Positions 1 through 32,000 of a stretch of 32,000 nucleotides of DNA are shown here, in pieces. This DNA is from an archaeon (GTDB lineage Archaea; Iainarchaeota; Iainarchaeia; Iainarchaeales; CSSED10-239). Numbering within the stretch: position 1 is the first letter of the stretch; each line of letters begins with the position of its first letter. The notes beneath the pieces were generated by a model. The model searched no databases and was not told the origin of the DNA. It saw nothing but the letters and a program-made list of their open reading frames with translations. A program made the position numbers and the translations under genes. The DNA is taken from assembly GCA_035390665.1 (NCBI GenBank), contig DAOOUC010000003.1, positions 90,001-122,000 on the forward strand, given 5' to 3'.

Positions 1-3000
1 TTTACAATACTATTGTTCCCGTCTGCATTTTTATATAAATAAACACCAGGTAAAACTATTGGTAGATTTGCATCATTAATTATTGTACTACCATATCCAT
101 CTCTATGACTTTCTTTAGCAACTGTATCTATTCCAAGTTTTCCATCTATAGGGATATAATATAATAAATTTCTCATAGAATAAGGCATTTCTCTTACTAA
201 TTCTAAATCAATATGTAATGGAGAATTGTAAACTGTTTCAAAATCATTATTTATCTTTATTCTATATTTTCCTGGTTTGTTTGTAGGAACATTAATAGTA
301 TTTATTTTTTCTGTTTTAGATATTGAAAAATTACCATCTTCAATATTATCTATAGTCATTATTGGATTCTCATCATTAAAATCTGTGAAATTACTCCCAT
401 CTAAAAATTCATTATATGATATTAAATCTTTTAATAAATCTTCTGAAACACCATCATTCATTAAATAAATATAAGTATTATTTTCTTGTAAATTACTCAA
501 ATCATTATTTATTAATTTAAATACACTAAATAGCATCTGTAGAGAATCACAGTGAGTTTTATTAGTATCATAATTTTCTTCTATAGTATCAATACATTCT
601 TCAGTCCAATCAACTTGTGTATCTCCCCAAGTGTACTTTATCTTTGGCTTAATCTCTTCTCCACTTTTACAGGAGTCATATGCTTCTAATTCACATAAAC
701 CTATAATATCAAAGTTATTGCTTGTTATTGACCCACTACTTCCAAAGCCTAAACATATATTTCCATAAAGTCCTTGTTCTTCAAGTAATTCTTGTATTGT
801 TTGCTTAATTATTGTAAGATTAAGAGTTAATGGAACATTAATATCAACATTAGATGAATTCAAATTATTTATATTAAAAGAATATTTAAGCATTTTAGGT
901 TTACTAAAAATAATATATGGAATATTAATTTGACTATTATCTAATCCATCATAATTTCCATTTATATCTAAAGTTATATTCTTATTTGAATTTGAATTAA
1001 TGTTTTGTGGAAGCTGTGTTATTACCGTAAAATTATTATCCAAATCATTAAATTCCACAGAATATAAATTAAAATCATAGGTTTTTGTTTCATTTTTTAA
1101 TATAGTATTAAGAACTTGAGAACAACTATCATAAGAACAACTCATTCCTTGTGCCCATGGCGGAGATAGATTTGGATTTTTCTTAATTGAGTAAATTTCA
1201 GATGGATTATATATCCTTATCTTTATATCAAGTGGCATTATAAAGCCATTATTATTTGCAGTTATTCCAAATAATATTGCTGCGGATTTATAATTTGAAG
1301 TTGCATCTGCATTGCCTTGTAATTGAGATTTTATCTGAAAGTTAGTTGTTTGTCCTGAAGATACATTTACTTGAGTAGGTATAATGTCTATGCTTAATCC
1401 CGAAACGGTGGGATCTATAAAACTTGTAGCTCCGATTGTAATCGGATTTGCTGAATTATTTGTAATTGTATAATTAAAATCAACTATAGGAGACACATTC
1501 TTAATTAATTCAATAAATATTTCGTTATTTTCTATTACTTTTCCTGGTTTTGTTATCCCAATTGTATTTGTATTAAGATTAACATCAAATTCCTTGTTTA
1601 TTTTTATATCTGCATCTAAAGTAAAAATAATTGGTTGATTATCAAATATTCCAATATTTAAGGTATTTATATATGTTCCAACAACAGTTGTTGCATTTTG
1701 AGGAATTAAAACGGTTTTAATTTGTGTTTTAATTAATTTATTACTGTCTGAAATGGTGGTTGGTAAGATATTATTTTCTTGCAAGTAGACATTCATATCT
1801 GTAAATGAGATAAAACCGGATCTTCCTTCTAAAGTTACATTTAACTGAGAATTATATGCACTTGATTTAACCACATAATAATTTTTGTCGTCTGTTGTAT
1901 AATTAGTTACCCCATTAACTGTATATTTGCCTACGTTATAAATTAATGGATGATTAACATCTATAGTTGTGCCTGTTGTATGAACTAACTTATATCCTGA
2001 TTTAATATTTTTATTAATAACAATTTGATTACTTAGCAACCCATAAGATACAGGGAAAGTAAATCTAAATGTAATATTATCACCTAATCTACTTTCGGTT
2101 AAAGAAATATTTCTATCTACCAAATATCCATTTTCATTTGTTTCTCCTAAAACAACTTCAGGAAATAAAGACATTTGATATTTAATTAGAATATCTGGGA
2201 TTGGATTTCCAAACTTATCTCTTACTCTAAAGCTTACGGCATTATCCCCAATATAAATATTATTAGAATTATCTAAATCGTTAGTTAATATTTCAATAAA
2301 AACATTAGAATCATCATAATACGATAATACATTTTCATTTCTTGGATTAATTTCTTGAATATCTAATATGTTTGTACTTATCTTTGCATTTGTGTTAAAG
2401 AAATTATTTACCCCAAACACAGAATTATGATCAAATTCTGTTCCAAATTCTGCGGATAGAGAATTTATTTTATAGGTTGTTGCATTTATTCCTGTTGCTG
2501 ATTGATTTTCATCTTGTGATTTATAGCTATAGGATTTATACAATAATGCATTTAAAGTATTTACTGAATATGCATTTATGTCTTCATTATTTATATTGTG
2601 GGTTGTACTTAAATAAATGAATTTTTGATTAGATAAATAATTATGATTAATCTTTAATTCATAATTTTCTCCGTTCTTTAAAAGTAAACTGCCTTGAGAA
2701 TTGTTCCAATCATAAATATTCTGAATTAAATTATAATTACTGTTTGTAAATGGAATTTGGTAGAAACTTGTTGGTGCATAGAAATATCCTTGCGGTCTTA
2801 TATTACAATTTTGCCAAGAATTATTTAATGTTGGAGAAAATACATAATTTTCATTGTCTGATTTTGTTAATGCTCTATAATAAATCACATAATTATCTAA
2901 TTGTGTTAATTCATTTTGGAATTTAAAATTTACAGAAAATTCAATTTGATCTGCCTCACTATCTGAAAAATTAATCTTTGCCCATTTAAATCCTGTTTGG

Positions 3001-5627
3001 TTTGCACAGTTTGTTTGACTATGATCCGGTTCATAATTTGCAGTAAAATAAGATTCATTCCAATCTACTAAACTCCCATGATAATTACATCCTCTTGTAA
3101 ATGTTGCTCCTGGAGCAAATACAGTTTCAAGTCTTAAATAATCTGAAGATAATGTAATGCTTTTTCCGGCCCTTATAAAAGCATATGCTAAATCTCTATT
3201 GTCTTTTGTAGTTGTTGTAAATTTATATTTTAATTTTAATGTTCTATTTCTATGTTCTGCAATATTAATAGTATTTAATTTATTTATTCCACTTTCATCA
3301 TAAATTCCTAAAAATTCAATATTTGCAACAGCATTATTTTGTTGATTACCTAAAATTACTTTATAATATATCTTCTGTCCAGGAACCAAAGAAATTAAAT
3401 CTGTTTGGTAAGTTGATTTATTTTCTGCACTAATTACTGCATACATTTCATTTTGAGGACATCTAAATATATAATCTTTATTTGTGTCTGATATTGTATT
3501 AATGGAATAATCTGTAATTAACTGATCGGTTGTACTATAAAATGAAATATTATAATCCCTTACATTTACATTTAAATTTAAAATTTTTGCTTGACTTTCT
3601 AAATTTACACTTAATTCTAAGAAATCATTAGCATCTAATTCTTCTGTATTAGATTGCCCTTGATATCCACTAGCTACAGCAAATGCAAAATAATCTCTGT
3701 TTGCTCTAACCATTGGGAAATTAACATCTCCTGAAGAATTTGTTGTTTTAGGAGAATTTATTGGTATTTCTGTATCGTCTTCGTCATATAAATAAACTGA
3801 TGCTCCAGCATAATTATAATTTTCTTTCTTTACTTTTACTCCAATTATTCCTGTGTTAAGAACAGAAGAATATTCTAATGGTATCGATATATTTCTATCA
3901 ACCCCATTTACATCAACTGGTGTTGCAGGAAAATAACCGTAATCTTCTGTGTTTGTAACTGCAATTTTATAATTTCCTGTTAATACAAAGAAGTTTGCAG
4001 AATTTACATCTTCTCTTGTTTCTATTGATTGATATCCATTACTATCTGTGTTTTTCTTATAAATTGTTATATCTCCTTTAACAACTCTAGTTGTGTCTCC
4101 GTTTGCATCAACTAAATTAACATTAATATAACCCAATCTTCCAATTTGACAACAACTTCCGGTTTTTAATAAATTTCCATTTGTGTCTCTTGTATAATAA
4201 TTAGTTAATAAAGAATTATTACAATCTAAACAACCATTTTTACAGAAAGGAGAAAATATTGGATTTCTACAATCTAAATTTTGTAAATCACTTGGAGATA
4301 ATAATAATAAGTTTACTGCGGTTGTATTATTAATTAAAACTTGTTTTCCTTCAGTTCTTTGAGAACTTATATATCCATCTTTACTTGTAGATAATGTATA
4401 TGTTCCAGGAGCTAAATTTTCAAATACAAATCTTCCATAATAATCTGTAGTTCCTGTAACATAAACTAAATTTGATTCATTTATTGGTGTAGTTAAGTCA
4501 TCCATCTTGTAAACAGACACAATTGCTCCAGTAACTTGGCCGCCTTGTAAATTATTAACAAATGCTTCTATTTTCCCTACATTTGCAATAGTTTTTAATG
4601 AAAGCATTATTGTATTGTTTTCAGGAACAACTTGGTTTTGAACTAAATTATAATAATCAGAAGTAACATCTATTCTTAAGAATCCGCAACCAGTTGGTTG
4701 ATTAACTGTTAATTTCCCTTGTACTACATTTGATGTTGAAGGACTTGGTGTTTTCCCTGAATTTGAACAACTTAATTTTACTTGTAATAGTCTTGTAGCC
4801 AATAAGGTTTCATTTTCTTTAAATAATATTTCTCTTGTTTGCTCTTGAGATAAGAATAATTGACCAGTTGTATCTATATCTAAAACAATTGTTTCAATTA
4901 TGTTTTTCTTTGGTTCTATTGTTTTAATTTCTGTATTATAAGATTCTTTAGATGCAATTAGTTTAATGCTATCTTTTTTAGAAAACTTAATATCTTCAAA
5001 AATAGTATTTCCAAATGAATCTGTTGTTTGAGTAGTGTTTTCATCATTTATAGATAATATTACTGTTGCCCCAGACAATAGACTATTTGTTGTATCTGTT
5101 ACAGTAACATCAATTATTGAATTACCTCCAATTCCGGTTAAGACTCCAAAAAAGAAAATAAAGTAAATTATTGAAATTATTAATATTAAGAATAGAATAA
5201 AACTAGGAAATATTTTGTCTATTTGATCTGTTACTTTATTAACAGGTATTACTTTACTTACACTATCTATTATAGAATAATATCCATCTTCAAAAAAGAA
5301 GTATATTTTTTTAAAGAAATTCATTATTGATGTCAATGGATTCTTTATCTGTTTTTTTTCTTTTGGTTTAGATTCTTGAGTTGTTTTTGATTCATCACTT
5401 TTTACTGATTTAGATAATTCTTTAAGTATCTTTTCTTTATCTTCCGTTTTTACTTGTGGTTTATCTCCTTTAAAAGAAACTTTATTTTTATCTAATTCTT
5501 TAATTACTTCTTTTGCTTTATTTTTATCAAATCCATCAGCCACAATTAATCCTTGTAATTCTTCTCTTGTAAAAGCTTTTGCTTTATTTTCTACAGCTTT
5601 ATAGATTTGTTCTATTTCTTTGTTCAT
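1..5627 (-). CDS. Giant signal-anchored surface protein, 3'-partial (>1875 aa; C-terminus beyond the left window edge). Paralog of 9449..15424. Absent from the supplied ORF track.
   Basis: ATG at 5627..5625 lies 2 nt after the TAA of the upstream gene. Hand translation gives MNKEIEQIYKAVENKAKAFTREELQGL..., a K/E-rich ~139-aa N-terminus, then the hydrophobic anchor FPSFILFLILIISIIYFIFFFGVLTGIGG (5124..5210). The rest is collinear with the 1991-aa ORF: RPQGYFYAPTS (from 2775) vs RPEGYFYASTT; CLGFGSSG...CKSGEEIKPKIKYTWG vs CLGVGGLI...CKSGPESIPKVLYNWG; YYIPIDGKLG vs YYIPVDGDFG. Frame was confirmed at positions 3, 747, 2775 and 5625. The track lists no minus-strand ORF here, as expected if no in-frame stop occurs before the edge. 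I did not re-verify every codon. Confidence 0.85.
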   Translation of the reverse strand, partial: MNKEIEQIYKAVENKAKAFTREELQGLIVADGFDKNKAKEVIKELDKNKVSFKGDKPQVKTEDKEKILKELSKSVKSDESKTTQESKPKEKKQIKNPLTSIMNFFKKIYFFFEDGYYSIIDSVSKVIPVNKVTDQIDKIFPSFILFLILIISIIYFIFFFGVLTGIGGNSIIDVTVTDTTNSLLSGATVILSINDENTTQTTDSFGNTIFEDIKFSKKDSIKLIASKESYNTEIKTIEPKKNIIETIVLDIDTTGQLFLSQEQTREILFKENETLLATRLLQVKLSCSNSGKTPSPSTSNVVQGKLTVNQPTGCGFLRIDVTSDYYNLVQNQVVPENNTIMLSLKTIANVGKIEAFVNNLQGGQVTGAIVSVYKMDDLTTPINESNLVYVTGTTDYYGRFVFENLAPGTYTLSTSKDGYISSQRTEGKQVLINNTTAVNLLLLSPSDLQNLDCRNPIFSPFCKNGCLDCNNSLLTNYYTRDTNGNLLKTGSCCQIGRLGYINVNLVDANGDTTRVVKGDITIYKKNTDSNGYQSIETREDVNSANFFVLTGNYKIAVTNTEDYGYFPATPVDVNGVDRNISIPLEYSSVLNTGIIGVKVKKENYNYAGASVYLYDEDDTEIPINSPKTTNSSGDVNFPMVRANRDYFAFAVASGYQGQSNTEELDANDFLELSVNLESQAKILNLNVNVRDYNISFYSTTDQLITDYSINTISDTNKDYIFRCPQNEMYAVISAENKSTYQTDLISLVPGQKIYYKVILGNQQNNAVANIEFLGIYDESGINKLNTINIAEHRNRTLKLKYKFTTTTKDNRDLAYAFIRAGKSITLSSDYLRLETVFAPGATFTRGCNYHGSLVDWNESYFTANYEPDHSQTNCANQTGFKWAKINFSDSEADQIEFSVNFKFQNELTQLDNYVIYYRALTKSDNENYVFSPTLNNSWQNCNIRPQGYFYAPTSFYQIPFTNSNYNLIQNIYDWNNSQGSLLLKNGENYELKINHNYLSNQKFIYLSTTHNINNEDINAYSVNTLNALLYKSYSYKSQDENQSATGINATTYKINSLSAEFGTEFDHNSVFGVNNFFNTNAKISTNILDIQEINPRNENVLSYYDDSNVFIEILTNDLDNSNNIYIGDNAVSFRVRDKFGNPIPDILIKYQMSLFPEVVLGETNENGYLVDRNISLTESRLGDNITFRFTFPVSYGLLSNQIVINKNIKSGYKLVHTTGTTIDVNHPLIYNVGKYTVNGVTNYTTDDKNYYVVKSSAYNSQLNVTLEGRSGFISFTDMNVYLQENNILPTTISDSNKLIKTQIKTVLIPQNATTVVGTYINTLNIGIFDNQPIIFTLDADIKINKEFDVNLNTNTIGITKPGKVIENNEIFIELIKNVSPIVDFNYTITNNSANPITIGATSFIDPTVSGLSIDIIPTQVNVSSGQTTNFQIKSQLQGNADATSNYKSAAILFGITANNNGFIMPLDIKIRIYNPSEIYSIKKNPNLSPPWAQGMSCSYDSCSQVLNTILKNETKTYDFNLYSVEFNDLDNNFTVITQLPQNINSNSNKNITLDINGNYDGLDNSQINIPYIIFSKPKMLKYSFNINNLNSSNVDINVPLTLNLTIIKQTIQELLEEQGLYGNICLGFGSSGSITSNNFDIIGLCELEAYDSCKSGEEIKPKIKYTWGDTQVDWTEECIDTIEENYDTNKTHCDSLQMLFSVFKLINNDLSNLQENNTYIYLMNDGVSEDLLKDLISYNEFLDGSNFTDFNDENPIMTIDNIEDGNFSISKTEKINTINVPTNKPGKYRIKINNDFETVYNSPLHIDLELVREMPYSMRNLLYYIPIDGKLGIDTVAKESHRDGYGSTIINDANLPIVLPGVYLYKNADGNNSIV

Positions 5628-5629
5628 AA

Positions 5630-7771
5630 TTATCTAATATTAAATAATGGAGTAAACTCTATTTGTTTTATTATTTCTGATTGTTTATAAACTATAAGAT
5701 ATCTTTGACCAGGACAGAATAATTTTACATTTGAAATATCTTCTAAATTCAACTGTTCTGGTATATAGATTAATTTATTTTTTGAGATTTTAAATTCTTT
5801 AATATCTTGCCCGAAAGTAAAACTATCACTTACAGATATTATTTCGCCAGGTTTTAAAGAATAAACAATATAATTTTGATCTGTTGGAAATCCTGGAGGC
5901 CTAAATAAATTTCCATCAGGAGTTAAATAATAAATATTTAAATCTGTTATATTTGAACTTATAGTAGAATATATAGTATATTCTTTATCTATTCTTAATG
6001 GATTATCTAATTCAAGACCATCACATACTGGACAATAGACAAGATTGAATAATGCATTAGGAACTTGATTTGTATTATTATCAAAATCACTAGCTATGTC
6101 TCCTAAATTTGTAGCTTCTAAACTTAAATTATCTGTAATATAAGATAATTGAGAATTTCCTAATGATTTTAAATAACAAGATTTTATATTTATGTTAGAA
6201 AAATTAATAGGAACGTGTTTAACTATCTCTAATTTTTTTGGAAGATAACTTCCAGAAGCAAGATATTTAATATTTATATCTCCAATTGTTGGATCTTCCC
6301 CTCCACAAGCTTCTGTTGTACAACTACAATTAACTGCAGTTATAGAATCAATATTGTCTTCATTTAATTCTGTTTTAATATTAATATTCCCACTTTTATT
6401 AAAAAGATAATCTACATTTATTGAACCAATACTTCCTGCAGTTCCAAAATAAGATGGTTCTGTAGGATATGAAGAATTAAACCCCTTTTTTCCACTAACT
6501 GAATAATAATTAAAATCACCATTATTAATAAATTTGGTAATGTTTAAATCAGAGATCAATCCTCCATTCCCTCCATATCCATCTGTTCCTCCTCCATCAT
6601 GTGCATTATCTCCTCCATTACCGCCATTACCCGCAATAATATTCCACATAATAGATCCATTATTTATTAAATCATTATTTCTTAATATTATTTTACCTGT
6701 AGAGCCGCCTATTCCTCCATCTGCATTATCATTACGACAATGATTAGCCCCCGCATCTCCTCCATTACCACCATTACCACTATTTAATGTAATATAAAAA
6801 TTAGAGTTATTTAATTTAATTTTTGATATATCAAATACTACACTTCCACTTATTGCTCCTGAACCCCCCGCTTTAGGATCTCCTGAACATCTTGGGCCGC
6901 CTCCTTCAGATGCACCACTACCGCCATCTCCTCCATTTCCTGAAATCAGTATTAAGTTTAATTCAGAATTATCTATTAATTCTAAATATTTTAAAATAAG
7001 ATTAGAATCCCCCCCAGTCCCTCCATCTCCGCCAGCTTTACGAGGGCTATCCGTTTTTCCTGTAGATCCTTTCGCGCCATTTCCTCCAACCAAATTTATA
7101 TTCATATTACTTGAATTTATTATACTATTAATATCTAATATTGATGGGCCACCAGGGGTTCCGACATATGGACCAGATGTTGTACTATCTGATCTATTAT
7201 TTGGGGTTCTTGAAATTAAACTTAAATTTAAATCTGAATTAAAGCCTACAAATAAATTTTTTAACTTTACTTTAATTCCGTGTGCCCTTCTATAGGCATC
7301 ATTATCTGCCCAAGATCTTTCGGCTTCTAAAAATAACAATTTTGAATTTGTATTATTTGATAAATAAATATCTGTATTTATATCTATTGTCGTTAATTGA
7401 ACTACGTTGTCTAAATTATCTATATTAAAAGTTAAACTACCATTATTTTTTATTAAAATTTTATCTATGCCTGTAATTTTATAATTGCTTTTAGATTCAT
7501 TTAATGTAATTGTATTATTTCCGACAATTTCTAAAATTGTGGTCTTATTATCACAATAAGTAACATTTGGCAATTTAACGAAATTTAAATCAGTATTAGT
7601 TATCTGAGTAGGTATTCTTATAATATATTCCCCTTGTTGCCCTCCACTAACATCTTGAGTAACTCCCGAAATTGTTTGAAAACAATTTGTGGTTGCAAAA
7701 ATAGAATGTAAAGATAATTGCACAAATATAAAAATAAAAACTAAATTTAAATATTTTATCTTCATTATCAT
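5630..7771 (-). CDS. Secreted Gly/Asn/Asp-rich repeat protein (713 aa), putative beta-solenoid. Paralog of 15439..17463.
   Basis: Track ORF with ATG start. N-terminal signal peptide MIMKIKYLNLVFIFIFVQLSLHSIFA|TT. The core (aa ~199-452) has about 4-5 periodic units such as LNLILISGNGGDGGSG..., FYITLNSGNGGNGGDAG... and MWNIIAGNGGNGGDNAHDGGG.... The C-terminal third is collinear with the 674-aa ORF (SGSYLPKK, YCPVCDG, EFKISKNKL, LFCPGQRYL). AAGGT overlaps the upstream stop, 4 nt before the ATG. Confidence 0.9.
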   Translation of the reverse strand: MIMKIKYLNLVFIFIFVQLSLHSIFATTNCFQTISGVTQDVSGGQQGEYIIRIPTQITNTDLNFVKLPNVTYCDNKTTILEIVGNNTITLNESKSNYKITGIDKILIKNNGSLTFNIDNLDNVVQLTTIDINTDIYLSNNTNSKLLFLEAERSWADNDAYRRAHGIKVKLKNLFVGFNSDLNLSLISRTPNNRSDSTTSGPYVGTPGGPSILDINSIINSSNMNINLVGGNGAKGSTGKTDSPRKAGGDGGTGGDSNLILKYLELIDNSELNLILISGNGGDGGSGASEGGGPRCSGDPKAGGSGAISGSVVFDISKIKLNNSNFYITLNSGNGGNGGDAGANHCRNDNADGGIGGSTGKIILRNNDLINNGSIMWNIIAGNGGNGGDNAHDGGGTDGYGGNGGLISDLNITKFINNGDFNYYSVSGKKGFNSSYPTEPSYFGTAGSIGSINVDYLFNKSGNINIKTELNEDNIDSITAVNCSCTTEACGGEDPTIGDINIKYLASGSYLPKKLEIVKHVPINFSNINIKSCYLKSLGNSQLSYITDNLSLEATNLGDIASDFDNNTNQVPNALFNLVYCPVCDGLELDNPLRIDKEYTIYSTISSNITDLNIYYLTPDGNLFRPPGFPTDQNYIVYSLKPGEIISVSDSFTFGQDIKEFKISKNKLIYIPEQLNLEDISNVKLFCPGQRYLIVYKQSEIIKQIEFTPLFNIR
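6416..7177 (-). repeat. Gly/Asn/Asp-rich periodic coding repeat (GNGGxGG turns) in the 713-aa protein. Locally GC-rich.
   Basis: aa ~199-452. The units are [hydrophobic strand]-GNGG[DN]GG-[polar/acidic loop]-GG.GG-[strand], about 45-50 aa each. The antisense frame yields the Pro-rich track ORF 6534..6743. Confidence 0.75.
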
Positions 7772-7776
7772 TTACC

Positions 7777-9276
7777 TTATTTGTATATTTTAAAAGGATA
7801 ATATAAATTTACATCTGAATAATTCAAATCTATATTTTCATTTAATTTAAATTTAAATTGATACATTTTTATTATATCCAATATTTTACTACTATTAGGA
7901 GTTAAATTAAATATGAAAAAACCATTTTGAGTTGTTTGATTATTTATTGAAGAATATCTGTATTCTAAATAATTAATATCAAATAATCCAAAGTTATCTC
8001 CAATATATGTAAATTGAGGATTAATTGTTTGCCCTGAATTTGCTTTTTGAATATTACCAAAAATTATTGGAGTCATGGTTTGATTTTGATCAGTAAGTAA
8101 ATAATCCGAAATTTGTGCGGTTATATTTATGTAATTACAATTTTTTGTAAATTTAATAATATTATTATTTTGTAATCCAATATTACTTGAATTTAAATCA
8201 ATTATACCTGCCTCTGGTCTACTATATATCAAAGAACAAATTGCAGTATAATTTAATCCAGAAGGCACTTCTATTGGCCCACAGGTATTAAGATAGATTC
8301 TACCTAAGTTTGTTGTGCTTAGTGCATTAAATGTTATTGTCTTTGGTAATTTGCCAATATATTCACTAAATTCTATTTCACAAATTGGTTCTTTAAAATC
8401 TATTGGTATGGTATTACTATAATTCATATTTGCATTATTTTGCCCATACACACACAGATAACTATTATTTAAATCACAATTTAGACTATATTTTTGAGCA
8501 CCACAGTTTAGTTTTATTTCTCCACTATTGTTTACATAACCAAAAATAATTCTTTTTGAATATACATTTAACGGAGTTATTGGAAGTGTCTGTGGTAGTG
8601 GGTTATCATCATAAATTCCCATTTGTTCTGATGTATAACATCCAGGAAAATAAATAGCATATTCTTCAGAATAATAGTTTGCAGGCTCAATATAATTATT
8701 TGAATCTAAGTTAAATTTTCCTTGATTATAAATTTTAGCTTCAGAAAAATCTAATGTAGCTATTTTCAAATAAGAATCTGCATAAGATTCCTCTGAATTT
8801 AAATAATCAATACATCTTTTGATTTCTGAATGACTTTTAAAATTAAATTCAGCTCCTGAATTAATAAAAATATTTGTTTTAATTTTTATGTCTACTTCAT
8901 TTTTTAAAAAAATAGTTAATTTCTTATTATTAGATATAATAATAGAATTAAAATCAACTATATAAAATTTAGTCATTACATCCCAAACAGTTACTTGTGG
9001 AATAAAAGATATATTAGTATCTATATTTACATCTTGAGAAATAATTAAATTCGGTCTTAAATTATTTACAGATAAAGAATCTTCAGAGATTATATATTGA
9101 CCTCCGGGTAATACACAATTATTTGTTCCAGAATCATAATTACAATATACTGTGTCTCCTAAAGTATTTTTTATTCCAGAAATTTCATAATTTTGCGCAA
9201 AAATTGTATTTTGAAAAAAAATTACAAAAATTAATAGTAAAGATGCCTTTACTATATTATTGTAATGTTTTTGCAT
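7777..9276 (-). CDS. Secreted hypothetical protein (499 aa). Divergent relative of the two Gly-rich proteins but lacking the Gly-rich core.
   Basis: Track ORF with ATG start, preceded by GGTGA with a 7-nt spacer. Signal peptide MQKHYNNIVKASLLLIFVIFFQNTIFA|QN. It shares with 5630..7771 and 15439..17463 the mature N-terminal ISG[IV] motif (YEISGIK), a GKLPK motif (vs SYLPK) and a C-terminal QFKFKLN...LYYPFKIYK end. Confidence 0.88.
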   Translation of the reverse strand: MQKHYNNIVKASLLLIFVIFFQNTIFAQNYEISGIKNTLGDTVYCNYDSGTNNCVLPGGQYIISEDSLSVNNLRPNLIISQDVNIDTNISFIPQVTVWDVMTKFYIVDFNSIIISNNKKLTIFLKNEVDIKIKTNIFINSGAEFNFKSHSEIKRCIDYLNSEESYADSYLKIATLDFSEAKIYNQGKFNLDSNNYIEPANYYSEEYAIYFPGCYTSEQMGIYDDNPLPQTLPITPLNVYSKRIIFGYVNNSGEIKLNCGAQKYSLNCDLNNSYLCVYGQNNANMNYSNTIPIDFKEPICEIEFSEYIGKLPKTITFNALSTTNLGRIYLNTCGPIEVPSGLNYTAICSLIYSRPEAGIIDLNSSNIGLQNNNIIKFTKNCNYINITAQISDYLLTDQNQTMTPIIFGNIQKANSGQTINPQFTYIGDNFGLFDINYLEYRYSSINNQTTQNGFFIFNLTPNSSKILDIIKMYQFKFKLNENIDLNYSDVNLYYPFKIYK

Positions 9277-9448
9277 TATTTATTCACCAAAATAAAAATA
9301 ATATTATGAATTCAACTACCAGTATAAATATAACTAACTTTTTACTTAATTTCATAATTTTCACGGATTTCTTTAAAAAATACCATATAATATATTAGTA
9401 TAATATATTTAAATATGTTTTTATTATAAAAATAGAAAAATAATACAG
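9277..9448 (-). promoter_or_regulatory. Largest intergenic gap (172 nt): oligo-T runs after the upstream stop, a TATA-like element and a Shine-Dalgarno site for 7777..9276.
   Basis: Minus strand after the TAA at 9449..9451 reads CTGTATTATTTTTCTATTTTTAT, with two T5 runs (9436..9440 and 9428..9432). An AT-only 9-bp hairpin at 9389..9409 is followed by a T6 run (9375..9380). GTTATATTTATAC lies at 9322..9334. GGTGA at 9284..9288 sits 7 nt before the ATG. Confidence 0.35.
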
Positions 9449-12400
9449 TTATTCTGTATTATTAAAGTTATTAATTATTAGCTCTTTTGTACCTATTGGC
9501 AAGTTTGTTTTTTCTTCTATCCATTGTATCTTTGTTGTGGATAAACTTTTAGAAATACATGCATTTCCTTCTCTTACTTGATTAAACATATCAAATATTG
9601 AATAAATGTCAGAAACATTTGAAATTATAGGAAGACTTGTTTCTCCAGAGGTATAATCTTTACCATAAAGTTTTGATAATTGATTATTTTCTAAATCTTG
9701 TATAGATAATCTTAAATTATCATAATCTGAATTTACTGGAAGATAGATCTTTGATTCTAATAAATATTTAGGTGTTAATTCATAACCGTATTTGTTTCTA
9801 AACTTATCTGTAGTTATAGTGTGCCTTAAATATTCATTTCCAAAACCAAATATTGAAATATCATCTATTGTATTATCATATCCTGCATCCATATAATCTT
9901 TCCAATTAAAGATTGTCATATCCCAATCAAAAGAATCGCTTTCACTATATTTTATTTTGTAACTAAAATTATTATCTTGTATATTATTTACTTTTGCAAA
10001 TATATTTATTGGCCTTGATGGTGTAAAATTTAATGCAAGTTGTATTTTTTCTGTTGTACTATTCATAGATAAATCAAATAATACTCCTTTTGAATTTAAT
10101 ACGTCTTGCACTTGCCAATCAATAAGATGACTTGTAGGATAATTTGCAGAAATTTCTGCAATTCCAGAACAATCTTGACCTGGACAATTCGCTTTTTTAT
10201 ATAACTTTATAGTTCCACTTTCTCTTTGTATTACTGGTATTAATTCTGCATAATCATAATTACCAACTATAGTTGAACCATATCCAATTCTGTGAGCTGT
10301 TACCTCGTCCTCTAATAATCCAAAGTCTCCATCCACTGGTATATAATAGAATAAATTGTCTTTATCTATAGGAATGCTTTGAATCAATTGTAATTTTATA
10401 ACTATGTCTGTTGTAAAATTAGAATTATAATTCTCTACTGTTAATTTATATTTTCCTACTTTTTTTGTAGGTGTTCCATCTTGATTTGTTTTTATTATTT
10501 CTAATGATTGTGAATGATTTGATTTTAGATAAGAATCTTGGAATGATTGGGTAATATTATGCGTTAAGAAATCATTATAGCTTTCTCTATAATCAGATAA
10601 AAGATCTTCTGAGATTCCATCATACATTAAATAAACATAATAATTATTGTCTTGTGGTTTATACCTTATACTATCTCCAATAAGTGTAAATATTGAATAT
10701 AATGCTTGAACAGAATCACAATGAATTTTATTGAAATCATAATCTAAATTTGTATCCATACATAAGCTGTTCCAATTTACTGATTCTTGCCCCCAATTAT
10801 AAAGTACTTTTGGAATACTTTCTGGGCCAGATTTACAAGATTCTGTGTCTTTAAAATTACAAGAACCTAATATGAATTGATCATTTCCACTTATTAATCC
10901 GCCTACTCCTAAACAGAAATTCCCTGTAAATCCATTATCACTTATAATGGTTTCGGGATCTTCTGGGATATAAGTCACTTGTACAATTAAATTTCTTGTT
11001 TCTTGTAATGTGTTATTATTTAAATTTAAATCAAAAGTTAATGACTTATTATATGTTTTATACCCTTCTGCATTTTGCATAAGATCAGTAAAGTTTCCAT
11101 CAATAGTTATTGGAACAGGTGTATTTGATATTTCTGTAGGTAAATCAAAAGTCATAGAAATTGGTAATGCATTAGGCATCTGGATTGTAGATAATGATAT
11201 ATTATAACTTTTGGTTTTATTTTTAAAAGTATATACTTTATTTAACTTACAATCAGAAATACTTTTACAAGGAATATTTATTTGTGATCCTTGAGTTGTT
11301 AATTCATAGGCTTTATTTTTTGGATATATTATTATTTTTAATGGAATTTCATAATTAAAAGATTCATTAGGATTTCCTATTTTTATTTGTAGATTTATAT
11401 TTTTTTCTGTAATTTGGTTTATTTGATTGTCTATTAAAGTAAAAATAAAATTAATATTTCCTACAACTTTATTTGATTCAGAAATAACTGTATTTGCTTG
11501 ACTAAAACTTATAATGTTAGTCAAATCATCTCCGGTTGTTGAAATTTCTAAAATTTGGTAATTTTGTGAATTATCAAAAGATAAATCTAAATAATATTCT
11601 AAAGTTCTATTTGTAGAAATATCTGTAATTAATTCTAGTCCTGATCCATTACTATCAGTATAAAAACCGTTATCTTCTGTTATAAACATAGATTCGTCAG
11701 TTAATACTATTCTTTTAATTTTTATATTGGAAGATGCAACTCTGTATATTGTTGTTGGCTCTTGGTTCCCTTGATTTTGCAAAGTAAAAAGATTATTATA
11801 TTCAAAATCTATATTTGTGTCTGTTGTATTAATGTCTATTAAAGCACTTGCTAAAATGTCTGTATCTGCTATAAGTGTTCTAGGCAATTGATTATCTAAT
11901 ATTAATTTTTGATTAATCTCTTCTGTTAATAATCCGTTGACAGCTGTTGTTGAAATATCTTCAAGTATTGTTGATCTGCCGGTTTTATTTTTTATTATGT
12001 AATTGTTGTTTGTTTCAGATATTTTCTTTATTCCATTTAATTCAGTTATAATTACTGGGAATTTTAATTTATTTTCATTAGTTATCAATTGATTATTTGT
12101 ATCATAAAGATCGATTCCTGACCCGATATTTAAAGACAATTCTAATTCGTTGTTTGGAAGATTGGAATTTGGAATTGTATATATAAATTTGATTGTTTTT
12201 CCTGAATCTGCATCTGCAATAAATATTTGAGTATTTAAATAATTATTTGTAATTTCTCCAATATCTGTTGGAACGGTTTCTCCAGAAATTATATATCTTA
12301 CGGATATTCCATTTTGGAATTGCCCGGTTTTGTTTTTTAAACTAATGTTTAAATCATTTAAACCAATGTATATTTTATTATCTGTTGCTTGAGATTTAAC

Positions 12401-15400
12401 TTCAGGAACATAATCGTTTTGTGCATAGGATAAAATATTTGTTGTAGTTGTTTCAAGTATTGAATTTTGAGCATTTCTAAATAATTGAGTTTTAATACTT
12501 GGTTGAGCAGCTAATGAAAAGAAATCAATTGGTTTTCCTATAGCTTGATTAGTAAAATAATATCCTCTTGTGGTTGTTTTTTCTGGAATAATTACAGATA
12601 AATTATTATCCAATAATTGAATTTGTGCAGTATTATTTATTTTGTCTTTAAAACTATTTTTAGAAAATAAATACTTTTCGTTTGTATTTGCAGTATTTAC
12701 AATTATATCTCCGGTTCTATTCGTTTCTCCGAATTGAATAAAATCAAAACTATAATTGTAATCTTTATCTATATAAAGAATATAGTCTGATCCAAATTTT
12801 TCTAATTCTCCATTATTATCATATAATTTAATATTATAAGAATAATTATTACTATCAAATGGAATTGATTGAGAAGTGGTAGATGCGTAGAAATAACCTT
12901 CTGGTCTTATTGTCCAATCTTGCCAATTTGAAACTGTTGGAGAAAAGGAGAAAGATTCTAAATCTGAATTAATGGATCTATAATAAATTTTATAATTATC
13001 TGGATTTGTTATTTCGTTTTTAAATTTTATATTTATTGAATATTCAATAATATTTGGTTCGATATCACTAAAATCAAACTCTGTCCATTTATATTTTCCT
13101 GAAACACATTGATTGCCGGATACATCAGAAGAATAATTAGTATTAAAGTAATTATTATCCCAATGATTTAAGGTTCCACTATATCTGCAACCCGTATTAA
13201 GTTCTGTATTTTCTGGAACAAATAAATTTGTATTAACTAAATATATATAATCGTCATTTTGAGTTAAATATTGCCCTGCTTTTACAAAAACTTTCTTTAA
13301 AACATCTTGATTACTTGAACCAAAAACGGTTTTGAACTTTAATTTATATTCTTTTGTAATATCGTTATTGCCAATAAAACCAATTTTATTTATTTTTATT
13401 GTTCCAGTGGAATCATATAATCCTAAATATTCTGTTGTTGTTTGAATAGAAGACAATGTTGTAGGAAAAGAAATTTCTTTGTTAGTTGTTTGTCCAGGAA
13501 ATAATGTTATTAAATCTGTTTGATAAATAATATCATCTTTTTTAGTCTTTAAATAAATACGGGAACAATTTTCACAATTAAAAACAAATGTTTTATTTGA
13601 ATCTCCTGGGGCACTTGCAATAATTATATTTTCTTTAGATATTTCTTCTCCAGTTATATCAAAGAAGGAGAAATTATAATCATTCTGATTTGGTGTGATT
13701 TTTAGATTTAATGCTCTTGCTTGATTCCCTAAATTAATATTTAATTCTAATACTTCATTATTATCTAATTCCAAAGATGGCAATGAATCTCCGTCTGCGT
13801 TTTCATTCCTTAGTATAGCATAAGCATAATATTCTTTATTACTTCTTACTAAATTAAAATTAACATCTCCATTTAGATTTGTAGTTCTTGGGCTTTCTGG
13901 ATTATATGCTATATATTCTCCATCTAGTTCATAAAATAAATAAACCAAAGCATTTGCTCTATTGTATTCGTCTTTTTTTACATTTACTTTTATTGTTCCA
14001 CTATTTAATGCAGAAGAATATTCCAATGGTATTTCAATTGTTTTATTTCCGTCAGATAATCCGTTTATATCTTGGGGATTTGACGAAATATAGCCACTAT
14101 CTTCTGTATTAGAAACAACAATTCTGTAATTTTTATTTCTTATTAAAACAAAAGTTGTTTGATTAATATCTATTCTTGTGCCTATTAATGTAGAAATATT
14201 GCCATCTCTTCTATAGATTGAAATATTTCCAATAACTGGTTGATTTGTATTTTGGTCTTTTAATTTAATTGTAAGATTACTTAATTGTCCTACAATACAT
14301 CCATTTCCATTTGGATTTGGAGTAACAATTCCAGATAATAATGGACTTGCACAATTAATACTTCCATTACTACAAAATGCACTATATATTGGATTAGTAC
14401 AATTAATATTTTCTAAATCTTCTGCAGTAAAAATAATTAAATCAGCATTTGCTAAATTATCATTAACAACTGTATATGGCCCAAACTTAGGCAAAGTAAT
14501 ATATCCTATTTTATCTACTGAAATTAAATAATTTGATTGAGCTAATTTAAATTTATATTTACCATATGTGTCTGTTGTCCCAGTACTAATTGCCATTTCA
14601 GATTCATTAACAGTAGTTATAGGGTCATCAATTGCATAAACCTTTAAATTTGTATTTGGTATTGCAACCCCGTTTGAATTTTTCACCGTTACTTCTAAGG
14701 TTCCTGTATTTGAATTTATTTTTTTCATTTCAACTATATTGCTTTCAGGGATTTCTCTATCTGTAATTAATTCATAATTATTTGAAACAACACTTACTAA
14801 TAATTGACCACAATTTTTAGGTTGAATAACATTTTGTCTTCCATTTGTTACTGTTGCGGTTTTGGGTTGTGGAACATCTAAATCTGTAGAACATTTAAAG
14901 GTAGCATTTAAAACATCATTAATTAGTACATCATAATTTTTAAAAATTATTTCTCTTCTCTTTTCTGAATTTTGACCAGGGTATTCAAATTTTTTAGGAT
15001 CAAGTCTTAGTTTAATTGTTTGCTCTATATATTTTTGATTTAAATTTATTGTTGATTCAAATCTTAAATAATTTTCTTTAGTTATTGTTAATTCAAGTTT
15101 TCTAGATTTTAATTCTTGAAATTCAATATATCCGAAAGCATCTGTATTTTTTGTTTCTTCCTGCCCATTATAATTTATTTTAACAACTGCATCTTTTAAG
15201 GATAAACCTTGTTCGTCAGTAACATATATAGCTAATGATTTTGACGAAGGGCCAGATACTAGAACGATTATAATTATTATTAAAATTACTGCTACACCAA
15301 TTAAAGGGATTTTAAATTTATTAAATAAAGATTTAAAATCTGGTTTTGATTTTGAATTTACGGGCTTATTTTTAGAATCATCAACTTTTTGTTTAATTTC

Positions 15401-15424: not shown

Positions 15425-15438
15425 AGGTTTTCCTATTT

Positions 15439-17463
15439 TTAATTATTAAATAATTCTCTTAAAGGAACAAAAGGAAACTCAAATTCTTTAGAGTTATTCC
15501 CAATAGTTATTTTTCCTTTCAATATATATTCTTGACCATAACAGAAAAGATATTCATCTTCTGCTAAATCATTTCTATCTTCATCTTGTGATGATCCAAA
15601 CCACACAAGTTTATTTTTTTCTAATTTAAACTCTCTCATTCCTATTTTATCATTCATTTCTGAAGAAATTTCTTCTTTATTTGTATAAATTGGTTGTAAG
15701 GTATTATCTATTCTTTTAGTATAATATATTTGATTTGTTACTGGATTAAAATAAAATATTTTTAAATCTCCAGGAAGTATTTTCCCATTAACATTTGAAT
15801 AAATATTATATTCTCTTGTATATCTATTAACTTCGTCAGTAAGATCTATAACTTCACAATGAGGACAATATCTATAATTAACTGACGTTCCGGCAGGTAA
15901 GAAAGAATTTATGCTTTCAATATTTGTTGCATAAATATTTGTTCCTCCATTTAGATTATAAGTTACTTGACTTGGTTGAATATAACAACCAGATAAATCT
16001 ATAGAGTTATTAAAAATTGGGTGTTCTGGTTCTGATTTAATATTTATAGATTTTGGAAGATAAGATCCATTCTTTAAATTATTAATATTAACATTAGTAA
16101 CGGTTATTCCTAAATCTAATAATTTACGCATATACCCTGTATCCCCCGATTCGCCCCCATCATCGGTATTATTATTTGCTTGGGCCGTTGCAGCTAACTG
16201 ATAATCTGCTAAACTAAAATTTAATTGAGATATAATTTCTATTCCAGGATATGTATTTTCTAAAAAATTAATATCTATATTTCCTAAAGTTCCTGGAAAT
16301 CCAAAAGGTTTATCTAATTCGTGATTAGTACAGGTTCCATCAGCAACATTTCGTTTTCCTAATTCTCCTGATTTTAAATTAAGTTTAAAATTAGGGGACC
16401 TATTAATTAATGTTGTTATATTTAAATCCGAAACATCTCCGCCATTACCACTATCTCCATGGTAATCGTGTTCTCCATCATTACCCTCGCCCCAATCACA
16501 ATCATTATCCCCCGCAAATCTGCTTGTTCCTGCCCAGCCACCATTTCCTGCAATTGCTTGCATGGAGAAATCTCCTTGATTTTTTATTAATTTTATTTCA
16601 TTTATATTTATATTTCCTGCATGCCCTCCATTCCCACCATTAAATGAATCGTCTGCAGAATCATCTTTAGGAGAATGACTTCCATTTCCGCCATTTCCTG
16701 TTTTTAAGATTATATTCAAATTATTATTATTCTCGATATTCTGAATTCTAAGATTTAAATTTCCAGAAGATCCTCCTGGTCTTCCGTGTCTTTCTTCTGC
16801 ATCATCTTCGCTATGTGGTTGTCCGCCTTTTCCTCCATTTCCGGTTCCTAATTCAACAATTGAATTCCCAAAATTTATAAAATTTTTAAATGAAATTATT
16901 AAATCGCCTGAAGATATCCCGTCTGTTCCATCGTCTCCTTCACTATCTCCATCTGTTCCATTTTTTCCATCATTTGTTTTTATTTTTATTTCCAATTTAG
17001 AATTAGGTTTTACTGTAATATCTTTAGTTATAAAATTTATTTTAATTGAACTACTTGAAAATGATTCAGATAAATTTTTAATTTTTGCATCTGAATTTGA
17101 TTCAACTATTATGTTTGAAAGATTAATATCTAAACTTTTTGAATTATCTATCACTATATTAGAAGAACCAGATATCACTAAATTCCAATTAGTATCATTC
17201 ATATTTAAATTTTCTTTAACCCAAATTGTTTTTGCATTTAAGTTTAAATTGATTGCATAGTCTTCACAACCGGATAAATTAAATAATTTAGATGTGCTTG
17301 ATTCTAATGGTGTTGTATTAACATTACATTCACAGATTTTAGTTGTGTTATCACAAGAATTACAAGTTATTCCATTTACAATTCCAGAAATAGCACAAGC
17401 AAATATTGGATTTACAAATATAATAAATGTTATTAAAAGTATAAATATTTTTACATATTTCAT
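15439..17463 (-). CDS. Secreted (possibly lipid-anchored) Gly/Asn/Asp-rich repeat protein (674 aa), putative beta-solenoid. Paralog of 5630..7771.
   Basis: Track ORF with ATG start. Signal peptide MKYVKIFILLITFIIFVNPIFA|CAISG; the Cys at +1 is loosely lipobox-like. Acidic tract NDGKNGTDGDSEGDDGTDG, then periodic units LGTGNGGKGGQ..., ILKTGNGGNGSH..., AIAGNGGWAG... and SGNGGDVSDLNIT. The C-terminal third is collinear with the 713-aa ORF (NGSYLPKS, YCPHCEV, EFKLEKNKL, LFCYGQEYI). Confidence 0.9.
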   Translation of the reverse strand: MKYVKIFILLITFIIFVNPIFACAISGIVNGITCNSCDNTTKICECNVNTTPLESSTSKLFNLSGCEDYAINLNLNAKTIWVKENLNMNDTNWNLVISGSSNIVIDNSKSLDINLSNIIVESNSDAKIKNLSESFSSSSIKINFITKDITVKPNSKLEIKIKTNDGKNGTDGDSEGDDGTDGISSGDLIISFKNFINFGNSIVELGTGNGGKGGQPHSEDDAEERHGRPGGSSGNLNLRIQNIENNNNLNIILKTGNGGNGSHSPKDDSADDSFNGGNGGHAGNININEIKLIKNQGDFSMQAIAGNGGWAGTSRFAGDNDCDWGEGNDGEHDYHGDSGNGGDVSDLNITTLINRSPNFKLNLKSGELGKRNVADGTCTNHELDKPFGFPGTLGNIDINFLENTYPGIEIISQLNFSLADYQLAATAQANNNTDDGGESGDTGYMRKLLDLGITVTNVNINNLKNGSYLPKSINIKSEPEHPIFNNSIDLSGCYIQPSQVTYNLNGGTNIYATNIESINSFLPAGTSVNYRYCPHCEVIDLTDEVNRYTREYNIYSNVNGKILPGDLKIFYFNPVTNQIYYTKRIDNTLQPIYTNKEEISSEMNDKIGMREFKLEKNKLVWFGSSQDEDRNDLAEDEYLFCYGQEYILKGKITIGNNSKEFEFPFVPLRELFNN
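16279..16974 (-). repeat. Gly/Asn/Asp-rich periodic coding repeat in the 674-aa protein. Locally GC-rich.
   Basis: aa ~164-395. Same unit architecture as 6416..7177. The antisense frame yields track ORF 16410..16643. Confidence 0.75.
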
Positions 17464-17490
17464 ATTTTTTCTTCTCTTATAATATTAAAA

Positions 17491-17889
17491 TTATGATTGC
17501 TTAAATGGGAAAGTTAAAGAAATATTTTGATCTTGTTCACCATATTTTAGTGTTGATGAAATAAAATAAAATTTAAAGAAATCTTTAGCAACTAATATTT
17601 GTACATCTTTTGTTGCATCTTTGTTTCTTATAAAGAATAGTTTTCCCGTATCTGAGTTTTTACAAGTACTGTAAATATTTATTTGCGGTAAGTTTTGCCC
17701 GGGATAAAATTTACTTGCGGTAAAATTGCCTGAACAGTTAATTAAGTTATCTGGATCTTCAATTTTACCGAAAACAATAGGATAAATGTTTCTGTTTTCT
17801 GTAGGAAATGATATCCAATCTTCTGCAAAGACAAATCTAACATTAACTAACAGAAACAACAATAGCATTATTTTAAAATATTTTTTCAT
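17491..17889 (-). CDS. Small secreted hypothetical protein (132 aa).
   Basis: Track ORF with ATG start 10 nt after the upstream stop. Signal peptide MKKYFKIMLLLFLLVNVRFVFA|ED. Two Cys residues. The C-terminal end ...FFKFYF...NISLTFPFKQS resembles the C-terminus of 7777..9276 (...QFKFKL...NLYYPFKIYK). Confidence 0.75.
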   Translation of the reverse strand: MKKYFKIMLLLFLLVNVRFVFAEDWISFPTENRNIYPIVFGKIEDPDNLINCSGNFTASKFYPGQNLPQINIYSTCKNSDTGKLFFIRNKDATKDVQILVAKDFFKFYFISSTLKYGEQDQNISLTFPFKQS

Positions 17890-17899
17890 TTTATCCCAT

Positions 17900-32000: not shown

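Follow-up and report, generated by a model that had tools for sequence, protein, structure and literature searches.

A 32,000-nucleotide stretch of archaeal DNA (GenBank assembly GCA_035390665.1, contig DAOOUC010000003.1, positions 90,001 to 122,000 of the forward strand; hereafter the window) is filled by the central part of a conserved chromosomal gene cluster that encodes giant surface proteins, several of which end in a common C-terminal module (the C-module), together with secreted proteins of predicted beta-solenoid fold and several small membrane proteins. The cluster is most like bacterial fibrillar adhesins or archaeal stalk-and-canopy envelopes but is a member of neither, since its giants carry the stalk domains whereas no known adhesive domain, anchor signal or S-layer homology was found. 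There is roughly an even chance, judged from sequence and gene order, that its products together build a single multi-component surface fibre assembly, tethered to the membrane and used for contact with other cells.

In Sulfolobales (SlaA/SlaB) and Staphylothermus (tetrabrachion), an anchored elongated protein is paired with a co-encoded secreted partner; in the cluster this polarity is reversed, the giant being anchored via its N-terminus, and there are many paralogs in place of one pair. Methanogens (Methanobrevibacter) possess many paralogous adhesin-like proteins with beta-helix and Ig-like blocks, which are presumed to contact partners; in contrast, the window products have no match to the curated families, and their C-module, N-terminal anchor motif and cassette order are specific to a DPANN family. 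Mycoplasma mobile encodes in its small AT-rich genome a tandem operon for the giant transmembrane (TM)-anchored surface proteins Gli123, Gli349 and Gli521, which form one machine, but the likeness is an analogy only: the cluster shows no homology to these proteins, and neither it nor its surroundings include a motor or ATPase component. Ca. Nanohaloarchaeum antarcticus is said to encode SPEARE giants of more than 5000 amino acids (aa) with protease, adhesion and restriction-endonuclease domains, reportedly proposed by Hamm et al. in 2019 as a host interface; these too are giant DPANN proteins, but from a different lineage, and the window giants lack all three kinds of domain.

Bacterial fibrillar adhesins (Monzon et al., 2021; PMC8286594) resemble the window giants in being very long, in having a stalk of prealbumin/Ig-like beta-sandwich domains (SpaA, SdrD_B, Big_1 and CarboxypepD_reg), and in bearing a distinct domain far from the anchor. 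The window giants differ in being archaeal; in being held by an N-terminal TM helix with its own motif and not by LPXTG, type I secretion (T1SS) or type V secretion (T5SS); in having stalk domains that are recognisable in the first ~500 aa only, the rest being undescribed; and in their fixed partnership with a secreted beta-solenoid and small membrane proteins. No known adhesive domain was detected with Pfam or NCBIfam in the window giants or in the C-modules of 22 relatives, and known anchor or secretion signals (LPXTG, T1SS, autotransporter barrel, PGF-CTERM) were not found in the products.

Large surface proteins are routinely mentioned for DPANN archaea (PMC6792436), and "giant surface" proteins are mentioned for nanohaloarchaea (PMC10266531). 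The S-layer lattice protein described for Micrarchaeota is ~101 kDa and MSTP-like (10.1101/2021.04.28.441871; 10.1101/2024.05.28.596244). MSTP-like (DUF1608-type) proteins of Micrarchaeota and other DPANN share with the cluster proteins an N-terminal signal or anchor and predicted glycosylation, but they are ~100 kDa products of a single gene, belong to a different fold family and have no family match to the cluster proteins. Giant archaeal surface proteins are an already known kind; the C-module, anchor motif and gene cassette are previously unnamed and widespread, and full-text literature searching found no description of any of them.

Conserved gene order

Nine open reading frames (ORFs), all on the minus strand, cover ~99% of the window and leave 344 nt non-coding in total. 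The genes are named g1 to g9 in transcription order, from the right edge to the left edge, and the gaps between them, in the direction from g9 to g1, are 2, 5, 172, 14, 27, 10, 96 and 18 nt; these values, re-derived exactly from the ORF list, agree with the first-pass annotation. ORFs of at least 130 aa that are of interest all lie on the minus strand, and those of the plus strand (up to 114 aa) are antisense within the giant genes. The GC content is 0.24-0.32 across the window, at which about one in twelve random codons would be a stop (estimated from base composition), so frames of 2000-2500 codons are not accidental; orthologs of every window gene occur in the same order in other genomes, which also speaks against chance ORFs. 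Both edge genes are cut by the window, and their full forms are found on longer metagenome contigs. The array continues upstream of g1 with a 975-aa protein (g0) and a further giant of 1778 aa, and downstream of g9 with three small membrane proteins and then a bacterial-type HU gene. Its extent of more than 40 kb is a lower bound, the upstream end not having been found by an exact DNA pattern search or a g0 protein scan of the metagenome contigs.

In at least seven other genomes the same order is kept at 30-60% protein identity (L008, L010, L011/L015, L013, L018/L019, L023 and L024; L001 to L007 denote metagenome contigs matching the window itself, and L008 onward loci of relatives). It consists of a ~1000-aa protein with a signal peptide and C-module, a ~2500-aa anchored giant, a small secreted protein, a ~700-800-aa beta-solenoid protein, a ~2000-2180-aa anchored giant, a ~125-aa protein with three TM helices, a ~115-aa protein with four TM helices, and HU. 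L013 belongs to Ca. Iainarchaeum sp., L020 to a Diapherotrites CG10 metagenome-assembled genome (MAG), and L009 to GCA_964397185.1. In the distant L009, a solenoid-family protein lies directly upstream of the giant (profile E 1e-6). The Diapherotrites MAG has four tandem C-module giants (~20-26% identical) with the small membrane pair immediately after them, although synteny with HU and the histidyl-tRNA synthetase (HisRS) gene is lost; ~2 kb between its first two giants (L020:374-2457) has no called gene. The pair occurs in 11 of the 13 loci whose downstream flank is visible:

L001:20041-20831 and L020:24221-24906: small membrane pair, polytopic, 3' of the giant array

Neither protein of the pair has a Pfam family. 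A third small protein (72-84 aa, two TM helices) is kept among close relatives only.

The fixed order in relatives, the solenoid-giant pair in L009 and the small membrane pair in the Diapherotrites MAG argue for one system rather than a chance neighbourhood, and conservation of gene order is the strongest evidence for it. The first-pass annotation had proposed an uncharacterised surface apparatus. Homologs of the window genes do co-occur elsewhere, and no confident profile match ties any product to a system already characterised: searches of Pfam, NCBIfam, PHROGs and PDB sequence profiles, with Foldseek runs on PDB and BFVD, gave generic stalk domains only. Neither of the two refuting conditions set in the first reading was thus borne out.

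The window organism has two copies of the triad of small secreted protein, solenoid and giant (g4-g5-g6 and g7-g8-g9), with g1 and g2 as additional genes; Ca. Iainarchaeum and L023 have a single triad. This shows tandem expansion and would suit a set of independent adhesin-like paralogs that form no multi-subunit complex and have the small membrane proteins as unrelated neighbours. Such an account also draws on stalk domains that are those of bacterial fibrillar adhesins (PMC8286594), and on the large surface proteins often invoked for DPANN host contact (PMC6792436). It is nevertheless unlikely, as different families, beyond paralogs, keep a fixed order across genomes, only 2-14 nt separate partner genes, the small membrane pair follows the giants even where all other synteny is lost, and C-module proteins that have no anchor must be retained on the cell by some other component.

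The C-terminal module

The C-termini of g0, g1, g3, g6 and g9 align across several hundred residues and have in common the motifs CDxxQ, YLMxDG, LYYxPIDGxxG...RxGYG, PSxP, a Trp, and IFxxV...AC...W. The module is ~450-750 aa long and contains Cys. A two-sequence profile from the window, searched against 1.84 billion representative proteins, matched 385 representative clusters (274 at E<1e-10 and 105 at E<1e-30), in which the module lies nearly always at the extreme C-terminus of proteins of 2000-3200 aa. The motifs kept family-wide are YCDATQF, YL(I/M)xDGxSxDF, FYYLPFDGxVG...RxGYG, FSPSxxTP and IFxLVxxxxVC...WNP. Micrarchaeota also carry C-module giants. A word-indexed homolog search with a five-sequence C-module alignment recovered nothing, not even the queries, which reflects a retrieval limit in low-complexity AT-rich sequence.

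A hidden Markov model (HMM) of the module was rebuilt from 134 distant representatives, with the window proteins excluded, and scores g0 at 6e-138, g3 at 2e-131, g9 at 4e-24 and g6 at 4e-21. Four giants of the window had been credited with a common C-terminal module; the HMM bears this out for g3, g6 and g9, whereas g1 is matched weakly (3e-6), in two short end segments only. The module of g9 lies beyond the left edge of the window. Within the window the rows are as follows, all on the minus strand:

17939..20086, minus: g3 C-terminal module in the form typical of DPANN as a whole, residues 1787-2502 (family HMM E 2e-131)
9491..10867, minus: g6 C-terminal module, residues ~1520-1978 (family HMM E 4e-21)
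26897..27034, minus: g1 extreme C-terminal motif LQNINSVFNNITSQNVCFNFYDANRISLWYNPEKV, common to all C-modules (domain E 1.7e-5); the second matching segment is 28304-28471

Pfam has no family for the C-module, whether searched with the window proteins, with four distant giants or with 22 other members, and sequence profile searches found no PDB relative. An AlphaFold2 model built on g6 from a 13-sequence alignment is of moderate confidence (mean predicted local distance difference test score, pLDDT, 64.5; predicted template modelling score, pTM, 0.66) and has a helical subdomain followed by beta-rich domains; Foldseek found no significant match to it in PDB or BFVD. Gly, Pro, Tyr, Trp and Cys account for most of the invariant residues, which looks structural rather than catalytic.

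Anchored giants

Three window giants (g3, g6 and g9) have a single N-terminal TM helix (residues 30-50 or 135-153) followed by an ectodomain of ~2000 aa, which opens with transthyretin/Ig-like beta-sandwich domains and closes with the C-module:

17900..25444, minus: g3, 2514-aa anchored giant (Pfam CarboxypepD_reg 4e-15, SpaA 3e-14 and SdrD_B 2e-7 within residues 73-536)
25286..25393, minus: g3 anchor motif RIPIKWLTKPIDKLFP and then the TM helix, residues 18-53 (motif comparison)
9449..15424, minus: g6, 1991-aa anchored giant (TM residues 32-50; CarboxypepD_reg 2.8e-10, residues 242-310)
3..5627, minus: g9, anchored giant, first 1875 of 2142 aa (frame open to the window edge; full length on L001:13650-20078)
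5154..5300, minus: g9 juxtamembrane motif FFFEDGYYSIIDSVSKVIPVNKVTDQIDKIFPSF and then the TM helix, residues 110-158 (motif comparison)
4308..5117, minus: g9 membrane-proximal beta-sandwich stalk, residues 171-440 (Pfam CarboxypepD_reg 1.9e-16 and Big_1 4.2e-5; SpaA-like)

The start of g3 is ambiguous, either GTG at 25444 (2514 aa) or ATG at 25435 (2511 aa). g6 is a paralog of g9 (32.7% identity over 1748 aa), and the orthologs of g9 are 33-64% identical over their full length.

Most of 20 distant family members inspected carry the anchor motif LEDKYYxxLDKIxxxGIPVYKVVDPIDKIVPSF together with a TM helix. The corresponding Lys-rich juxtamembrane motif precedes the helix in g3 and g9, with a degenerate version in g6, and the positive-inside rule suggests an orientation with the N-terminus in and the C-terminus out. 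Every other window product has a hydrophobic segment at residues 1-26 only. No product has a C-terminal hydrophobic segment; that the products have N-terminal anchors or signal peptides, as first annotated, agrees with hydrophobic segments found at N-termini only. The N-termini are Sec-type with A-x-A-like sites (IFA-TT, IFA-QN, VFA-ED and INA-NT); no class III signal peptide of archaeal type IV pilins or archaellins was seen among them, and no pilin family was matched in Pfam or NCBIfam.

Curated domains in g3, g6 and g9 are CarboxypepD_reg, SpaA, SdrD_B and Big_1 only, all within the first ~500 aa, and the remaining ~1500-2000 aa have no Pfam or NCBIfam family. Weak uncorrected BLAST matches had raised the possibility of a g8-like solenoid segment inside the giants, which profile-profile comparison ruled out (probability 4%). 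Asn, Ser and Thr are abundant in the products, and N-glycosylation sequons number ~2 per 100 aa, compared with 0-1.4 for five neighbouring cytoplasmic proteins. Positional enrichment of sequons was ruled out, their density matching that of residue shuffles (z 0-2), which makes it a composition effect. A surface location of the products is well supported by the N-terminal-only hydrophobic segments, the stalk domains and the Asn/Ser/Thr-rich, sequon-bearing composition.

Secreted partner proteins

Each triad consists of a secreted protein, a predicted beta-solenoid protein and an anchored giant, in that order:

17491..17889, minus: g4, small secreted protein of 132 aa that opens the g4-g5-g6 triad (signal peptide)
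15439..17463, minus: g5, 674-aa secreted Gly-rich beta-solenoid protein, 14 nt upstream of g6 (homolog of g8)
7777..9276, minus: g7, 499-aa secreted protein, first gene of the g7-g8-g9 triad (signal peptide; no Pfam family)
5630..7771, minus: g8, 713-aa secreted Gly-rich beta-solenoid protein, 2 nt upstream of g9 (signal peptide)
6362..7174, minus: g8 Gly-rich repeat region, residues ~200-470, with ~49-aa rungs bearing GNGGxGG(D)

The start of g8 is ambiguous (7765-7771): the protein has 713 aa if the first ATG is used and 711 aa in the gene calls of other contigs. Three or four secreted proteins had been placed in one family in the first reading. Homology of g5 and g8 is firm (BLAST E 2e-20; profile E 1e-199); g7 joins them weakly, through its N-terminal ~180 aa only (domain E 8e-4), and g4 matches only the C-terminus of g7 in uncorrected BLAST. 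Orthologs in equivalent positions are found for g7 (L008_487, L010_552, L011_467 and L024_492; 32-45% identity) and for g4 (L024_135; 47% identity). The label Gly-rich fits, with 10-11.5% Gly overall and 20-32% in central 50-aa windows; for g5 the figures are 10.1% overall and 16-24% in the centre.

The 16 homologs of g8 are named "archaeon" or "Ca. Iainarchaeum sp.". The AlphaFold2 model of g8 (16 sequences; pLDDT 86.5, pTM 0.84) is confident and consists of a stack of two-strand rungs, whose Gly loops are long and ordered, and of beta domains at the C-terminal end. The family has no PDB sequence relative in profile searches, and the nearest PDB folds are the beta-helices of the HMW1 secretion domain, GH110B and EspC, none of them significant (E of at least 0.037, TM-scores 0.13-0.31). 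An RTX/hemolysin-type Ca-binding beta-roll was considered for g5 and g8 and rejected: there is no PF00353 match, the period is 49 aa and not 9, and GGxGxD-like strings are few.

Beta-helix proteins are often polysaccharide lyases or hydrolases, and CarboxypepD_reg domains often accompany enzymes. With a beta-solenoid model for g8 and GH110B among its nearest folds, the products might be read as enzymes or binding proteins, surface-tethered and secreted, that degrade polymers or capture nutrients. This is quite improbable: no catalytic family occurs in any product or in 22-26 relatives, the Foldseek matches of g8 fall short of significance (best E 0.037, TM-scores 0.19-0.31), and the invariant residues of the C-module form a structural pattern. 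That the window holds no enzyme, transporter or regulator, as had been noted at first, is borne out by the domain searches.

Proteins without an anchor

Of the proteins upstream of g3, g0 (975 aa, outside the window) places a C-module behind a cleavable signal peptide without an anchor and is 24% identical to g3 over 834 aa. Its neighbour g1 also has a cleavable signal peptide instead of an anchor, together with a divergent version of the C-module; its start lies outside the window, and the ATG at 31948 is internal.

26888..32000, minus: g1, residues ~552-2254 of a 2254-aa secreted giant (full ORF on L004:3218-9982)
25541..26869, minus: g2, secreted protein of 442 aa that has a Pro/Thr linker and ends in a Cys-rich domain (signal peptide, from reading of the sequence)

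Five copies of a ~195-aa Cys-containing domain occur in g1, four of them in the window; they are marked by NF(K/R)ENGxDAR(V/A)CF ... C(I/V/L)SRP, with markers starting at residues 363, 789, 1190, 1388 and 1581 (spacings of 426, 401, 198 and 193), and have no family or PDB match. The upstream 1778-aa giant (L004:1-218) has at its C-terminus the same Cys-rich domain as g2 (NYRCVCV...GPYN...CWKG...GCNT); its end is thus formed by a second shared module, distinct from the C-module.

Intergenic regions

Two gaps are large enough to hold candidate transcription signals:

9277..9448, minus: largest intergenic gap, 172 nt; T-runs follow the g6 stop, TTTAAATA lies at 9406-9413, and GGTGA precedes the g7 ATG by 6 nt
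25445..25540, minus: intergenic gap, 96 nt, with the hairpin AGATGAGC/GCTCATCT at 25525-25546 overlapping the g2 stop, a T-run, and TTTAAATA at 25493-25500

Up to three transcription units had been proposed in the first reading, and both gaps may be terminator and promoter sites: an 8-bp hairpin with a T-run lies 3' of g2, T-runs lie 3' of g6, and TTTAAATA is present in each gap, motifs of a kind that discriminate poorly at 26% GC. Purine-rich, GGTGA-like strings precede most starts. The window has no Rfam family, and its tandem repeats are trivial short AT-rich ones only.

Lineage and chromosomal context

The window organism is an uncultured DPANN archaeon, Iainarchaeota/Diapherotrites-like; Iainarchaeum is placed in the DPANN kingdom Nanobdellati in NCBI taxonomy. 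The window has no marker gene within it. Downstream of the orthologous giants in relatives lie genes for HU, HisRS, a short alanyl-tRNA synthetase (AlaRS), a PLD-family protein, prolyl-tRNA synthetase (ProRS) and an ATP-dependent DNA ligase; the ProRS has the archaeal/eukaryotic ProRS-C_1 domain, and the ligase is of the DNA_ligase_A type. One distant family member is flanked by Cdc6/Orc1, PolD DP2, NAC and SepF. All homologs with a source name are archaeal (Ca. Iainarchaeum sp., Ca. Diapherotrites, Ca. Micrarchaeota or "archaeon").

A DPANN-like or candidate phyla radiation (CPR)-like origin had been suggested from the window; the DPANN part holds, and the CPR part is wrong, given the archaeal-type ProRS and DNA ligase of the syntenic relatives and the archaeal homologs. 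A CPR bacterium, or a mobile element or virus with receptor-binding or tail-fibre-like proteins, could be argued for from the bacterial-type HU gene just downstream and from the low GC content and giant genes that also occur in CPR genomes and phages. Either is hardly credible, as the genes beside the cluster in relatives include archaeal ones for replication and translation, the named homologs are all archaeal, and the chromosomal neighbours are constant across many genomes. The window products have no PHROGs family, no phage match in tblastn and no BFVD match in Foldseek, and their context is chromosomal.

The HU gene (Bac_DNA_binding, ~89 aa) lies closely 3' of the cluster in all close relatives (L001:20041-21500; L008, L010, L011, L013 and L023), and the genes beyond it vary by lineage, including a serpin in L023 (20199-21545) and a Fic-domain protein in L008 (19905-20849) and L011. 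The cluster-adjacent AlaRS is 585-589 aa long, with catalytic and tRNA_SAD domains (L008:20919-22688; L010:19474-21231); being shorter than usual, it may be split or truncated, as in some DPANN. In L009, a DEAD-box/ResIII helicase and PolD DP2 near the giant both contain inteins (Intein_splicing and LAGLIDADG; 4156-7845 and 20183-25054).

Conservation, variation and the envelope alternative

The window matches contigs from four samples (JGI 3300025706, 3300010429 and 3300009838; SRR4244739) at 99.99-100% identity over up to 19 kb, and copies of g8 are near-identical in three further Sequence Read Archive (SRA) runs. The window population is one clonal population with no hypervariable region.

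Several observations weigh against a contact device. Near-identity across the four samples gives no sign of variation-driven host adaptation. Orthologs of the giants are evenly conserved along their length (0.3-0.5 pairwise identity), a pattern unlike the fast-evolving tips of host-specific adhesins; given this evenness, and since the C-module is the best-conserved part family-wide, a structural role fits at least as well as host-specific adhesion. The C-module model is moderate and has no significant fold match, so calling the module a distal head is a positional and not a functional statement. The distant loci L009 and L021 have no small membrane pair in their visible flanks.

The same observations lend themselves to a regular cell envelope, S-layer-like or a canopy scaffold, in which anchored giants are the stalks, C-modules and secreted proteins form an outer lattice, and the whole is housekeeping with no contact device. 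The core chromosomal position and stable synteny beside HU and HisRS, the even conservation along the proteins with a C-module conserved family-wide, and sequence that is identical across samples all suit such an envelope; the anchor-less C-module proteins suggest lattice contacts between modules, and the arrangement has its analogy in the anchored-stalk-plus-canopy S-layers of SlaA/SlaB and tetrabrachion. An envelope of this kind, the main rival reading, is still unlikely. Five to ten giant paralogs are involved here, whereas S-layers normally take one or two genes. There is no similarity to solved or curated S-layer proteins (MSTP/DUF1608-type, Ig-type or SlaA/SlaB): Pfam and NCBIfam gave none, and neither did PDB profiles queried with the C-module, with g1 and g3 and with the families of g8 and g9 (E<=0.1-10). 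Micrarchaeota, which also have C-module giants, reportedly use the ~101 kDa MSTP-like S-layer protein (10.1101/2021.04.28.441871; 10.1101/2024.05.28.596244), and the giants are probably not the S-layer lattice, at least in Micrarchaeota and at the level of a comparison between groups.

Proposed assembly

In the proposed surface fibre assembly, the giants would be tethered stalks that reach outward from the membrane and carry the C-module at their far end. The C-module proteins that lack an anchor, and the beta-solenoid partners, would be held on the cell through putative binding to the anchored giants, and the two small membrane proteins would serve the conserved anchor motif as a putative platform in the membrane. 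Together these parts would make up a fibre or canopy layer outside the membrane, making contact with other cells (a host) or with surfaces. Host attachment and an episymbiont lifestyle, suggested in the first reading, are conjectural for the window organism.

A bolder proposal, which is possible but doubtful, is an unrecognised surface organelle common to Iainarchaeota/Diapherotrites and Micrarchaeota, with tethered fibres, a new distal head, solenoid subunits and a two-protein platform that recognises the anchor motif, serving cell attachment and possibly exchange of material.

Significance

For DPANN archaea other than the few Nanoarchaeota and Nanohaloarchaeota in cultivation, large surface proteins are invoked, usually without a defined family, to explain how they touch, recognise or exploit other cells. 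From a cluster of more than 40 kb, and a relative's copy on an 813-kb contig, the cluster may make up ~5% of such a genome, a large investment. A searchable system is now defined by the C-module (385 clusters), the anchor motif, the beta-solenoid family, the two small membrane families and the fixed gene order. The C-module and its solenoid partner are new fold candidates for structural work, and with these definitions the phyletic spread of the system, its link to host dependence, its expression and its appearance in cryo-electron tomography become testable questions.

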